A DNA stretch of 64,000 nt, from NCBI RefSeq assembly GCF_006345805.1, contig NC_042997.1:172298001-172362000 (forward strand), in the 5' to 3' direction. The DNA is from Octopus sinensis (lineage: Eukaryota). The position numbers and the translations under genes were made by a program. The notes under the pieces are model-generated. The model saw only the letters and a program-made list of their open reading frames with translations, was not told the origin of the DNA and ran no database searches. Below are positions 3,532 to 58,634 of this stretch, piece by piece; within the stretch, counting starts at the first letter, position 1; each line of letters starts with the position of its first letter.

Positions 3532-4272
3532 TAGTTTTATTTTTATAGCGTGCTTTCACTTCACTACCGAGCGCAGCTCTGTGTGCCTTGGGTATGTGCT
3601 GTGATTTGTTGTGATGCTCTGATGGTTATTGTATGGAAAGTGTTCTGCGTAGGATGTGTGCAGTGCCTAGTAGTGCAATTTTCTGTATGTTATATGTGTT
3701 TGTAAGTCCTGGTGTTTTTGTTATGTATTTGTCTGAATATTTTTTTATCATGCCTAATGCACCTACTATGATAGGAATTGTTTCTGTTTTCAGATTCCAC
3801 ATTCTAGTTACCTCTATTTCCAGGTCTTTGTATTTTGAGAGTTTCTCCATTTCTTTTAGAGACACGTTGTCATCAGCTGGTATTGATACATCAATTAGAA
3901 AGCATTTTTTTTCTTCATGGTCTCTGACAACTATATCTGGTCTGTTGGCCTTAATTTCTCTGTCTGTGTGTATCGGCATATCCCAGAGTATGGTTGCTTT
4001 CTCGTTTTCTGTGACCTTTTCTGGTGTGTGCCTATACCATCTTTTTTCTGTTGTTATTCCATAATGTTGGCATAGCTTCCAATGTATGTAGGTTCCAACT
4101 CTGTCATGTCTGTGAATATATTCCTTCTTAGCCAGGACTGGGCAGCTAGAGATAATATGATTTATTGTTTCTTGTCCATCTCCACATATTCTGCAGTTAC
4201 TTGTAATATTTCTTTTCATTACATGTTTTTGGTAATTTCTGGTGGGGAGGCTTTGGTCTTGTGCTGCAAGAC
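3530..4272 (-). mobile_element. R4/Dong-clade RLE retrotransposon, 3' fragment inserted in (TAA)n
   Basis: ORF 3626-4219 has a CCHC finger (CRICGDGQETINHIISSC) and RLE motif (RPDIVV...IDVSIP...EKLSKY); (TTA)n tracts on both sides. Confidence 0.93.
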
Positions 4273-4325
<53 letters not shown>

Positions 4326-4326
4326 G

Positions 4327-4379
<53 letters not shown>

Positions 4380-12206: not shown

Positions 12207-12392
12207 CATGTGTGTGTGTGTGCATGTATGTGTGTGTGTGTATTCATGCATTTATTAATAAAGTTGCAAAGACATCACAAAAACTGCTACTCAGACAATT
12301 TTAAAACTGTCCAATGAACAGGAACAGTTTTTGTGATGTCTTTGCAGTTTTATTAATAAAGCATATTACTCTACCTCTGGTATTCGAGTACT
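11911..12392. mobile_element. Cluster of (TA)n/(TG)n-flanked fold-back mini-elements
   Basis: Hairpins at 11911-11965 and 12251-12360 (36-bp arms, 2 mismatches) are each followed by AAAGCATATTACTCTACCTCTGGTATT(T/C)GAGTAC; same family as 49740-49929. Confidence 0.7.
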
Positions 12393-12401
12393 ATATATAT
12401 A

Positions 12402-12965
12402 TGTCCTTTTTTATCACCTCTCCTTAATTCTTCTGCCCCTCTGCTTCTACTTCTCTCTCTTCTCTTCCCACGTAACCGCACGGTCAGCCTAGCCTGTTCT
12501 TTCTTTCTTGGTCTGACTGCCGTCTGTGCAACATTGATATTCTTCCCTGTGTTTGTAAAATTTTTGTATCTCTACCGTAAGGCTTCATTTCCACACGCAC
12601 CAGCTTAATTCAATTCATCCTTAGTCGAAAAACATGTGTTGTTATGTCCTCTTATTATTTTTATTGTATTTATTATTGTATCTATATTTGTGTAACTGTC
12701 CGTTTTTTTCCGTTCTTGTTTTTGTATACATTTGTTGATTTCTTCCAAGGAATCTAATGCTCTTAGCTTAGTTTTTCCTTGGGGCTGGCCAGATTGGAGC
12801 AATCTGAAGAATAATCAGCTGAAATTGCGAGGATAATCTGGTGCTTGACTGAGGATAGAGGGCTTCGAATGACCCGTCCTTGATTTCTTTGTATTGGCGC
12901 TCTGGATGTTTTGTTGTCCCTTTTTGTATCACCTAGCTGTCCAGGTGTTTTGCATTTTGTATTTT
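12402..12965 (+). mobile_element. (TA)n-flanked non-coding element carrying a structured RNA core
   Basis: Bounded by (TA)n; pyrimidine-rich 5' part; core 12741-12878 is shared with 27050-27192(-). Confidence 0.65.
12741..12878 (+). ncRNA. Putative structured RNA (hairpin, kink-turn hairpin, pseudoknot), family unassigned
   Basis: Compensatory changes relative to the copy at 27050-27192 in three helices; K-turn consensus (3-nt bulge + GA opposite GGA). Confidence 0.65.
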
Positions 12966-26989: not shown

Positions 26990-27657
26990 AGAATGAATGT
27001 TTTATATATAATGAACTTGAAATACAGGAAGGGACGAACACGGAACACAGACAATCATTCGAAGCCTTCAATCTTCAGTCAGACACCGAATCATCATAGC
27101 AAATTTCGGCTGTTCAATTCTGATATTTGCTCCAACTCGGCCAGCCCCAAGAAAAAAACTAAAGCTGTAGCATTAGATTTCTTGTAGAAGACAGGAATGT
27201 GAACGCACAAGACGGATGTGAATACAAAGAACGAAAACGAAATTGAAAACATAATGAATAAACAAAATATATATAAAACGTGGTTGTCATACGACTTTAG
27301 ACCAAATGAGACAAAACACAACAACATAGCAGCTGGCATAGAAATAATTACCGTTTCGGTAGCGGGGACACATGTTGGTCGAGATACGAAGGCCAACAGA
27401 ATGGTTGAAGAAGCAGCAGGTCGCAGGAGAGAGAGAAAGAGAGACAGAGATAAGGGAATCAAAGAGGGTGGAAGGCAGGGGACAGAATCAGTGACCAAGA
27501 GAAAAGGAGAAAGAAGGGATTAAGGAGGATGGGAAGGAAGAGGGGAGGAGGATGGGAGGAAGAGAGGGGAAGAATCGGAGGGCGCCAAAATTTTGTGAAG
27601 AAGCAATGGCGGGTAGTAAAAGACAGTGTGTATAGAAGTCGTGCAGGGTTTAAAATT

Positions 27658-27662
<5 letters not shown>
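26990..27662 (-). mobile_element. (TA)n-flanked non-coding element, second carrier of the structured RNA core (27050-27192)
   Basis: (TA)n on both sides; core alignable to 12741-12878, flanks only weakly similar. Confidence 0.65.
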
Positions 27663-49408: not shown

Positions 49409-49623
49409 GTTAATCCAAACATAAAAACACAAAGAGAAAACACAACAACACGAGGACGTGGAACAAGTATAGTATTACTGGACATTCTGGAAAGGAAAGA
49501 AAGAAGGAGGATTTAATGTTTCGAGCAGAGCTCTTCGTCAGAAACATAGAAAAAGCAAAGATCCAAGGAAGGGAAGACAGAGGAAAAAAATCGCCAAAGA
49601 TACACACGCGGTTACATATTGAA
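49409..49623 (-). mobile_element. (TA)n-flanked mini-element with minimal hammerhead (49511-49545)
   Basis: Minus strand GTTT-CTGACGA-A-GAGC-TCT-GCTC-GAAACATT-AAAT. Confidence 0.75.
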
Positions 49624-55603: not shown

Positions 55604-58480
55604 TTTTTTTTTCTTCTTTCAAATTTGCTTCCATTTCTTGCCGAGTGTCTTCCCGACTCCTAGGGCAAAGAAACTCATAGTATACATTCGTAGACCATTA
55701 AACCAAACTCAGTAGTTCGTTCATTTTTTTTTTTTTTTTTTTTTTCTTAAAGTTAAATTAAAATACATGAGCAGCAACAGTTCTCACATCGACAATGCTC
55801 TTCTCAATACGTGTGATGTACCAGTTAAGACAATCTTTTGCACTTCTTGCAGGGATGGTAAGCCAGGGATCATTCTCATATAATTTTCGGTTCCCTTCTT
55901 GATCATTCCTAGTGCTCCTACAATCACTGGTATTGTAACCGCCTTGAGATGCCACATTTTCTCAATTTCAATGAGTAGGTCTTTATATTTTCTGAGCTTG
56001 TCAAACTCTTTCGCTGAGATATTATAATCACAGGGGATGCCCATGTCGATCAATAAGCAAACTTTATTGTTTTGGTCTTTCACAACAATATCTGGTTTAT
56101 TGGCCTTGATGGTTCGGTCTGTATGTACTGGAAAGTCCCACAGAATGGTTACATTTTCTCCTTCAGTTACAGCCTCAGGGTGGTGATTATACCACTTGTC
56201 GGCAGTTTTGATATTGTAATGCCGACTTATTAGCCAGTGGAGATATTGGCCAACTCTGTCATGTCTTAATTTATACTCCACTGGTGCTAAGACTTTACAT
56301 CCAGAGATTAGGTGGTCCACTGTTTCAATCATGTCGTTGCAGAATCGGCATTTTGGGTCTGCTCCATTTTTCATCACATTGGCCTGGTAGTTCCGGGTTA
56401 ATAGGCTTTGATCTTGAGCAGCCAGGATGAAACCTTCGCTCTCTGCTTTTAGCCCTGAGTTCCGTAGCCACTGATGGGTTTGCTTCTGGTCAACATCAGC
56501 TTGTTTGCTGCGGGTCACATATTTGCCGTGCAGAGGTTTCTCCTCCCACCTATCAGCCAATTGCTCGTGCGCTTTTTTCATTGCCATCATTTTCACCTTC
56601 TTTGCAACAATAGTTGCCGTACTTCCCTCGGGTTGTTCAGTTTGGGTATCCTGCACGAGATCAATAGCAAATTTTTTGCTTTCCTTTATGATAGAATGAA
56701 GCTTCTTTCGTCTCTCATGATTTTCCACGAGCTTTAGCATCCAGTCATTCGATATTTCGAGATATTTGGCCAGTCCAATTGTGGTTGTTTTGTAAGCTAG
56801 TTCAAATTGGATCAGGCCTCGACCTCCTTGGGCTCTGGGAAGGTAAAGGCGATCTACGTCTGCCTTTGGGTGGTGCATCCTATTACAACTCAGTAGCTTG
56901 CGTATTTTTCTATCTATATTCTTTACTTCACTCATATTCCAGTTCAACACATTGTAGCTATAAGTAACAACTGGAACTGCTAAGGAATTTATAGCTAACA
57001 CCTTGTTACGTGCATTTAGTTCAGATTTCAGGACTGCACGAACTCTCCTATAACATTCCTTCCTGATTTTCTCTTTCATGCTTGCATGCTGAATACCAGA
57101 GCCTTCATTTATCCCTAAATATTTGTATGTTTGTTCTTGCTCAAGCTCTCTTATGACTGTGTCAACATCTAACACGACTGAATTTGTGGTCTTCACTTTC
57201 CCTTTCTGGAAAGTGGCCTTGGCACACTTCTCAAGTCCAAACTCCATCCCGATGTCATCGCTGAATGCTTTCACGGTGCGCAGTAGGCCTTCAAGTTCAT
57301 TATTGTCTTTACCATAAAGTTTTAAGTCATCCATATAAAATAGATGGCTTATTTTTTTATTGGCAATTTTATACCCATACCCTGTTCTGTTTAATTCACT
57401 TGTAAGGGGTATTAGGGCTATGCAGAATATTAAAGGTGAAAGTGAGTCACCTTGAAAAATTCCACAGTTGATGTTTATATTTTCTGAGGCAAGTACTCCA
57501 TTAGAGTGGTATAATTGGAGATTCGTATTCCACAACGACATATTGTGCTTCAGGAAGTTTGAAATCACAGGGGAAATTTTGAAGATGTCCAGCGATCTCA
57601 AGATCCATGGATGCGGTATACTGTCGAAGGCCTTTTTGTAGTCAATCCATGCGGTGCTGAGATTTCTGCGCTTGTTGTGACAGTTCTCAAGGATCATATG
57701 ATTGATTAGCAGTTGATCTTTGCATCCGTAAGAGCCTCGGCGGCACCCTTTTTGTTCAATGGGGAAAATATCGTTCTTCTCCATGAATGCATATGTTTTC
57801 TCCGCCAGGATAGATGTTAGGATTTTATACGTGGTGGATAGACAGGTTATAGGCCGATAGTTTTTTGGAAGGTTGGTTTCGTTATTCTTTGGGAGTAGGT
57901 AAGTAATGCCACTTGCTAACCATTCAGGTGTTTTCTTTGGGTCTCTCATAATTCCATTGAGCAGCTGAACTAGCTTACCGTGTGCGCATGGGAGCGATGC
58001 GAGCCAGAAATTCGGCACCCTATCTTTACCGGGGGTTTTCCAATTATGGGCTTTCGTGAGTGCCTTTCTTAGGTCTGCTATTGTGATGTCTTCCCATGCT
58101 TGTTGTTGTAAATTTTGGTAGGATCCTTCAGTTTGTATAATCCAGTCTGCATGTATGTTGTACGTCTTCTTGTCACTCCAAATCCTTTTCCAAAAGTTTT
58201 GAACTTCTTCCATGGGAGGGGGGTCTTTAACGGTTACTTTCTCCTTCCCTATTTCTCTGTAGAATTTTTTGGCATTGGATGTGAACAGCTTATTTTGCTT
58301 GTAAAACTTGTTTCTCTTCTCAAATCTTCGTATTCTTTGGGCTTTTGCTTGGACTTTTTGTTTCAGCGTTTCTTTTATTGATATCAGTTCTTCTCTTGGT
58401 GAGGATCCAAATTTTCTCTTCATCTTTCTTCCTGTTCTGGATCTTACATCATTTCCACTTATTAGTTCATTTAATATTGA

Positions 58481-58481
<1 letters not shown>
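55603..58481 (-). mobile_element. R4/Dong-clade non-LTR retrotransposon, 5'-truncated, inserted in (TAA)n
   Basis: Single uninterrupted frame plus ~180-nt 3' UTR; (TTA)n arrays at 55487-55602 and 58482-58573. Confidence 0.95.
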
Positions 58482-58540
<59 letters not shown>

Positions 58541-58542
58541 CA

Positions 58543-58546
<4 letters not shown>
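55784..58546 (-). CDS. Reverse transcriptase - CCHC finger - restriction-like endonuclease polyprotein (R4/Dong); N-terminal MM-poly-Ile comes from the flanking microsatellite
   Basis: YRPITCLSTTYK, WIDYKKAFDSI, GIFQGDSLSP, LFYMDDLKLY, YKYLG, CRFCNDMIETVDHLISGC, KPDIVV...LIDMGIP...KLRKYKDL; no internal stop. The true element start is missing. Confidence 0.92.
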
Positions 58547-58573
<27 letters not shown>

Positions 58574-58634
58574 CAGAGTTGTAATTATTGTTGCTTTCAA
58601 TAATTAAAATTGCATTATTACTGCAATCTCTTGG

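Follow-up and report, generated by a model that had tools for sequence, protein, structure and literature searches.

Two copies of a conserved segment in the octopus window

The window analysed here is a stretch of 64,000 nucleotides from Octopus sinensis (NC_042997.1, positions 172,298,001 to 172,362,000), in which a conserved RNA-like segment occurs twice, once in a family-A element (copy A) and once in a family-B element (copy B). Comparison of the two host elements aligned 138 nucleotides (nt) at 77% (E 1.6e-20), the next-best match covering 25 nt (E 0.046), in agreement with an earlier description made from the letters alone (the sequence-only reading), which had reported a common core of about 140 nt in hosts that otherwise barely align. 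That reading had proposed an unassigned structured RNA of a retroelement, built on a kink-turn (K-turn) and a pseudoknot. All the helices that it named were found at their places in both copies when checked against the sequence, and the retroelement context was supported by the analyses below.

DNA searches of the genome yielded 3005 first-look candidates with copy A and 1359 with copy B, of which 40 each were scored; the motif scans covered this same genome. An anchor-word pattern free of any pairing rule matched the genome 1855 times and a reversed control 48 times; for a second pattern the numbers were 856 and 78, some matches of both patterns being unrelated repeats. The earlier limitation of the evidence to two copies is thereby lifted. 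From the matches, 28 intact-looking representatives were picked by hand.

The segment read as a hammerhead

The sequence-only reading could not match the segment to the hammerhead consensus and suggested a different self-cleaving ribozyme. Once a rearranged order of the blocks is allowed for, the words CUGAnGA and GAAA, stems I to III and an RUH triplet all appear, and both core and stems are those of a hammerhead. In both window copies, the conserved 3' block contains CUGAnGA and the loop of helix C contains GAAA. Helix C closes with an A-U pair beside GAAA and is followed by H17 (C in family A, A in family B); because its A-U end adjoins GAAA, it was assigned as stem III. The five nt following H17 pair with the five nt preceding CUGAnGA (TCAAG/CTTGA in most family-A copies, TCAGA/TCTGA in family B), and on account of this complementarity the helix was assigned as stem I, a second pseudoknot which had been overlooked. 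Stem II, with its G10.1-C11.1 pair, is formed by the five nt preceding GAAA and the GGCUG that lies 5' of helix B. The blocks therefore follow each other as stem II 5' strand, cleavage block, GAAA block and CUGAnGA. The full order from 5' to 3' is closing helices, hairpin A, stem II 5' strand, helix B, K-turn, stem III, H17, stem I 5' strand, a linker of about 6 nt, stem II 3' strand, GAAA, stem III, K-turn, helix B, stem I 3' strand, CUGAnGA and closing helices (Table 1).

CUGAnGA and GAAA were present together in both window copies, in 22/22 family-B copies and in 22/29 family-A copies. Stems I to III abut the core, with U-A at A15.1-U16.1 in 20/22 and G-C at G10.1-C11.1 in 17/22 aligned copies, some rows being one column off register. 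The cleavage triplet read AUC, AUA, GUC or GUA, thus NUH with H other than G, in 24/28 representatives, and the core words, A15.1-U16.1 and an RUH triplet (H being C or A) were found together in 24 of the 28. In a selenocysteine insertion sequence (SECIS), the non-canonical stem faces the apical loop and an AA is left unpaired. The tandem G.A pairs of the present segment point away from the loop, in line with the earlier statement that it does not match SECIS. Rfam, as had been advised, was consulted and returned nothing relevant within the window nor among 5 further loci. A canonical hammerhead built from CTGAAGA and GAAA at 12804-12824 was also considered and rejected, as this is a chance word of copy A and most family copies read CTCAAG.

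Hammerhead types I to III show the circular order S-C-G and no core pseudoknots; here GAAA lies 5' of CUGAnGA and 3' of the cleavage block. In the available part of Eckert et al. 2023 (PMC10085705), hammerheads are described by blocks S, G and C in six orders, of which type SGC cleaves in vitro. The order S, G, C and the short linker between stems I and II (3–8 nt in 28/28 representatives) correspond to that type. The unbroken block C, with a stem II strand at most 1–2 nt after A9, does not, since the partner of the stem II 3' strand lies upstream. Judged by its sequence, the segment is a hammerhead in unusual wiring and not an unknown class of RNA.

Table 1. Positions of the two copies and their host elements in the window
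Feature	Position	Strand	Remark
Family-A host element	12403..12964	+	Repeat without open reading frame (ORF), flanked by TA runs
Copy A, whole folded domain	12729..12871	+	Closed by P0 12729-12734/12866-12871 and P1 12737-12743/12857-12863
Copy A, hairpin A	12745..12782	+	Ends immediately 5' of G10.1
Copy A, stem II 5' strand GGCTG	12783..12787	+	G10.1 = 12783; partner 12816-12820
Copy A, helix B + K-turn + stem III	12788..12842	+	Segments given below
Copy A, helix B	12788-12795/12835-12842	+	
Copy A, K-turn signature	GGA 12796-12798 opposite GAG-GAT 12829-12834	+	
Copy A, stem III (helix C of the sequence-only reading)	12799-12803/12824-12828	+	
Copy A, H17 (C of AUC)	12804	+	Predicted cut 12804/12805, by analogy with the hammerhead core
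Copy A, stem I 5' strand	12805..12809	+	Partner 12844-12848; G.G mismatch, TGAAG versus TCAAG in most family copies
Copy A, stem II 3' strand and GAAA (G12-A15.1)	12816..12824	+	CAGCT 12816-12820; U at 11.1
Copy A, CUGAGGA (C3-A9)	12849..12855	+	
Family-B host element	26990..27661	-	About 670 nt, without ORF, flanked by TA runs; tandem arrays elsewhere in the genome
Copy B, whole folded domain	27056..27199	-	Core intact
Copy B, stem II	27142-27146/27108-27112	-	
Copy B, helix B	27134-27141/27085-27092	-	
Copy B, stem III	27125-27130/27099-27104	-	
Copy B, stem I	27119-27123/27079-27083	-	
Copy B, CUGAAGA	27072-27078	-	
Copy B, H17 (second A of AUA)	27124	-	Predicted cut 27124/27123

Pairing and covariation

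The flanks of the pattern matches revealed many diverged families, in which stem II appears as GGCTG/CAGCC, GAAGG/CCTTC, GCACCT/AGGTGC, GCGCC/GGCGC, GCTCA/TGGGC or GAGCAA/TTGCTC. The GGCUG/CAGCY pseudoknot proposed earlier thus covaries across families. A strand-swap test was done with all 144 anchored sites of the fetched loci, grouped in 60 clusters; none was dropped, and truncated and unrelated matches were kept. Own strands scored higher than swapped strands for stems I and III (7.09 versus 5.76, P 1.4e-7) and for stem II with its upstream partner (3.41 versus 3.05, P 0.0045), these P values being optimistic since the clusters are related. For the downstream candidate partner, own and swapped strands were alike (3.21 versus 3.19, P 0.91; P 0.25 on 23 groups with a good cleavage block), and in 19 of these 23 groups the upstream partner scored better. 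The partner of stem II lies upstream, not 3' of CUGAnGA.

For the alignment, the six representatives lacking a K-turn were removed and the remaining 22, rows picked after the fit was known, were aligned by MAFFT, which is blind to structure. The four-helix structure had 82.3% of cells paired, against 65.5% in shuffles and 26–47% in slid controls. Two-sided changes (116 versus 46.5) and the covariation score (0.546 versus 0.248) both exceeded the shuffles (0/500 in each case). In each of the four helices at least four pairs were changed on both sides, and stems I, II and III had 83–91% of cells paired. The covariation expected by the sequence-only reading was therefore recovered for the four helices, though not by every measure, as two of five alignment measures did not rise above the shuffles (39/500, 478/500).

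A strict descriptor of the fold gave 95 matches in 967 kb of motif-chosen loci, and no match in any of six control sets, one of them reversed and five shuffled; copy B was the sole passing site within the window. The single-sequence folding energy of the window copies, in which pseudoknots are unscored, was not above that of shuffles (z -0.97 and -0.12).

Entry into the core and hinge

Folding of the flanks of the 28 representatives showed a hairpin ending at most 2 nt from G10.1 in 25 of them and, in 22, a helix P1 joining the sequence just after A9 to that preceding hairpin A. The signal was strong in both window families (z -5.4 and -3.1), and the closing helices P0 and P1 of copy A were also folded computationally in the family copy L005. 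The closure of the domain by upstream pyrimidines, claimed earlier, is seen in this folding. The part formed by P1 and hairpin A is nonetheless weaker than the core.

The K-turn signature (a 3-nt bulge followed by G.A and A.G pairs) is present in both window copies, as had been claimed, and is not universal. On the strand that was not fixed by the search pattern, the GA was in place in 14/22 copies, shifted by one in 4/22 and lost in 4/22, as scored by eye. In six of the 28 representatives a symmetric internal loop replaces the K-turn, and five of these have AGUA opposite GAA, which we take to be a loop E motif. The K-turn is one hinge solution and not a defining part, because of this replacement. 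A subgroup with the symmetric loop, mostly AGUA/GAA, comprises L067, L072, L083, L086, L110, L134 and L248 and may be a straight form acting as two copies. The distance from G10.1 to H17 was 20–23 nt in 20/22 copies with a K-turn.

In the SAM-I riboswitch, a K-turn precedes a loop pseudoknot. The octopus fold resembles it in the 3-nt bulge followed by G.A and A.G pairs and in the canonical stem pointing toward a pseudoknot-forming loop. It differs in having no ligand-binding core, and its loop docks through two helices that build the hammerhead.

Repeat families and neighbouring sequences

Members of families A and B have no ORF, a variable 5' truncation and a fixed 3' end before TA runs. Family B forms arrays of units of about 710 nt with a 36-nt spacer at tandem junctions, and the copies examined are all intact (22/22, 8 overlapping tandem loci left out); family B is young. 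In family A, U at position 11.1, a CpG site, was found in 11/29 copies, a sample biased by the query carrying that U. The end of a 712-nt contig joins its own start, as expected equally of a circle and of a tandem; the contig, from a run that was only guessed to be RNA, shows no cut site.

A word TGTCC(C/A)ATTTT is found at 12951-12964 and 27650-27661 of the window. By eye it closes 15/30 family-A copies; in family B it opens the unit that follows the 36-nt spacer. In the part of the published file consulted, the Naiad consensi of coral, octopus and crab (see below) finish with similar words. The word is a possible terminal signal. Inverted junctions inside the ribozyme, beside GAAA, were noted in L063, L068, L069, L070, L130 and L266.

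Three further features of the window were recorded. A short inverted-repeat element (12248-12392) lies immediately before the family-A copy. At 49519-49541 (-) the words of a minimal hammerhead in canonical order (CUGACGA, short stem II, GAAAC) occur in a small element near TA runs, with similar copies in L145. A frame of 939 codons at 55784-58603 (-) resembles the reverse transcriptase (RT) of a non-LTR (long terminal repeat) retrotransposon with a C-terminal cysteine motif and a nuclease, and a related piece lies at 3626-4330 (-).

Connection to Naiad and Neptune elements

According to the accessible sections of Craig et al. 2021 (PMC8557442), canonical hammerheads are missing from Naiads, some of which carry a core or half core only ('HHR_core', 'HHR_half_core'); no fold is given there for the half cores. 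The same source lists a TA target, 5' truncation, tandems and a 30–40-nt tail as Naiad features, and all of these are seen in the hosts of families A and B. A search for the Naiad-type RT motif gave 10 loci in the genome, all broken copies, one frame of which matched RVT_1 with E 9.6e-5, below the cut-off of Pfam. In 4 of these 10 loci the fold, intact or decayed, lies about 1.3–1.5 kb downstream of the RT motif on the same strand.

Among the 54 Naiad consensi of File S5 of PMC8557442, as far as it was available, at least 10 tails, belonging to four animal phyla, were recognised by eye as having the same wiring (Bfor, one Clytia family, Amil, Aacu, Anas, EuTe, Obim, Ovul and, by file order, two of Morbakka). 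The octopus tail labelled 'HHR_half_core' there has this same fold, and a 24-nt piece of the Ovul tail gave 55 genome matches against 0 in the control. By eye, stem I is just 2 base pairs (bp) in Bfor, and Naiad_EuTe has a 1-nt bulge alone in a 15-bp arm. The generality of the wiring is limited within this file: in nematode tails the order is canonical and loop II is long, several tails of arthropods could not be parsed to the fold, and it was not seen in Ppla or Omin. Spider, horseshoe crab and ostracod tails (assigned by file order) contain a C-run before CUGAnGA and an upstream GAAA, do not parse to the fold and possibly hold a further wiring.

Families A and B share the fold with Naiad RT remnants of another family, no alignable sequence having been found between them. 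Their direct parent was not found among the Naiad- and Neptune-type loci of this genome. Neptune-type pieces of endonuclease (EN) and RT beside two copies were considered as parent and neither was accepted, since L102 is an inverted junction and L104 stands alone. The genome does contain Neptune-type elements whose open frames are long (782 aa, RT and C-terminal GIY-YIG; L191:2511-4856 (+), L192 and L193). No hammerhead core pair was detected within 750 nt after the stop in five such elements examined.

Comparison with known hammerheads

The comparisons that follow draw on the sections of the cited papers that were available. As in type SGC (HRIMA-1; PMC10085705), the cleavage block is followed by the GAAA block and CUGAnGA, the linker between stems I and II is short, a helix braces the outer ends of these two stems and the core holds two pseudoknots. 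Unlike type SGC, the octopus form has the 5' strand of stem II upstream of everything and block C split at A9/G10.1; the chain ends exit via hairpin A and an extra helix, P1, and stem III is connected with the brace helix through a hinge, be it a K-turn or another. Type SGC is described from metatranscriptomes only and from no genome of a known organism, whereas the octopus form is a repeat in an animal genome. Families A and B resemble Naiads in the insertion features given above and differ from them in being devoid of ORFs.

The minimal type-I hammerheads of Penelope/Neptune pseudo-LTRs and of non-LTR retrozymes (PMC4209133, 10.64898/2026.07.22.740005) share with the octopus form the catalytic core, the position near the 3' end and the occurrence in non-autonomous tandems. 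They differ in their canonical order, their tiny stem III, the proposed dimers and the lack of a K-turn and of a pseudoknotted core.

Among the sources as available, core insertions listed are of 1–2 nt only (PMC3088659), a review names types I to III only (PMC6765202), and hammerheads with additional helices are mentioned without their location (PMC13725137). The accessible text contained no passage on an extra nucleotide after A9 (PMC3376415) nor on added helices (PMC10162972). No description of the fold in Naiads or animals was found in the literature covered by the search, chiefly openly available papers.

Interpretation and alternative readings

It is quite probable that families A and B carry a complete hammerhead core with stems I to III in a non-circular arrangement opened at A9/G10.1, predicted to mediate RNA self-cleavage in non-autonomous Penelope-like elements which are probably mobilised by Naiads. 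The wider reading, toward which the evidence leans slightly, is that of a seventh natural hammerhead wiring, its ring opened within the core at A9/G10.1 and turned back on itself at a built-in hinge, a K-turn or another one. In this reading it is predicted to be the active, long-overlooked ribozyme of Naiads from four or more animal phyla and of their non-autonomous copies, which number in the thousands.

For such a ribozyme the following mechanism is proposed. The K-turn would fold helix B back beside stems III and II, so that the loop could dock on the base via two pseudoknots, stems I and II. Helix B may then act as a brace where stems I and II end on the outside, as the 'I' helix does in type SGC, and P1 together with hairpin A may hold A9 beside G10.1 as a coaxial support. 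Cleavage is predicted after H17 and would take place only after the whole domain is synthesised, because CUGAnGA is transcribed last. A cut located 130–160 nt before the 3' end of the element would convert tandem transcripts into unit-length RNAs or circles, which is the role proposed for canonical Penelope-like hammerheads.

Several points weigh against this interpretation. Copy A is damaged, with U11.1 and the G.G mismatch in stem I, and fails the strict descriptor; only 7/29 family-A copies are fully intact. The flank folds reached z < -2 in only 6/28 representatives (median -1.17), and G10.1 was mis-picked by the script in at least 3 of the 28. To these are added the selection of the alignment rows, the relatedness of the clusters and the two alignment measures mentioned above. 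In PMC10085705, as available, block C is assumed to be unsplit, no insertion over 1–2 nt being known after CUGAnGA, and no tested precedent for a helix inserted after A9 was found in the literature searched. For a Penelope-like hammerhead, cleavage was reported only with protein, and the hammerhead was reported to be dispensable for insertion in vitro (PMC11167929). With regard to the mobilising element, families A and B have no ORF combining an N-terminal GIY-YIG with RT in the same element; comparison of both families with the Naiad RT loci gave nucleotide matches only to neighbouring copies of their own kind; and in L104 the distance from a Neptune-type RT piece to a permuted copy downstream of it is 259 nt.

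One doubtful possibility, compatible with the same chemistry, is that the core forms between two copies, either as a strand-swapped dimer or between adjacent tandem units. The symmetric loop of six representatives and the straight arm of Naiad_EuTe speak for it, as on geometric grounds a straight arm would be unable to reach back in a monomer; the tandem arrays of family B and the dimers proposed for minimal Penelope hammerheads in the accessible part of PMC4209133 point the same way. Against it, the constant spacing between G10.1 and H17 in the copies with a K-turn fits a compact fold-back, and stem III has its full 5–7 bp. Straight-armed variants may nevertheless need two copies.

Mobilisation of families A and B by Neptune-type instead of Naiad-type elements is considered unlikely. 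Long-frame Neptune-type elements do exist in this genome, where the Naiad RT is represented by 10 broken copies, and in one locus, L104, a permuted copy is linked to a piece of Neptune RT. However, of 50 Neptune RT loci only this one has the fold downstream in sense, a canonical-order minimal hammerhead was present in 10/30 Neptune EN loci, and the fold itself occurs on Naiads.

It is distinctly improbable that a hammerhead-shaped fold was kept as a signal for protein binding or positioning, with little or protein-helped cleavage. This would agree with the protein-assisted, non-essential cleavage reported in PMC11167929 and with the 5' truncation points, which showed no sharp peak at the predicted cut in 37 pattern-sampled copies mapped without gaps, a result confounded by indels. 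Conservation of U16.1 (20/22) and of a non-G at H17 (26/28), which are needed for catalysis and were not demanded by the search patterns, argues against it.

An ordinary type SGC, in which stem II would use the GGCU located five nt after CUGAnGA and the upstream GGCUG would act as a competing switch, is very hard to sustain: the word occurs there in both families A and B (4 possible pairs), but the downstream site shows no family-specific pairing, the upstream site is the better one in most groups and the downstream GGC is engaged in P1. That the segment is a new class of ribozyme or a module binding L7Ae, with no relation to hammerheads, as envisaged by the sequence-only reading, is hardly credible despite the missing Rfam match and the K-turn signature of most families, given that all hammerhead core nucleotides and the three stems stand in the right adjacency and that some families replace the K-turn.

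Significance

If correct, the seventh-wiring reading would overturn the statement that Naiads spread without hammerheads and would supply a fold for the unexplained 'half cores' of these elements. Non-circular RNA permutation would then reach from anonymous metatranscriptome contigs into animal genomes, and the hammerhead core would prove to be enterable via a helix at A9/G10.1, beyond the six wirings considered possible. Since standard descriptors and Rfam miss this fold, counts of ribozyme copies in eukaryotes are probably too low. A hammerhead depending on a K-turn would, if true, offer a natural handle for control by proteins of the L7Ae family.
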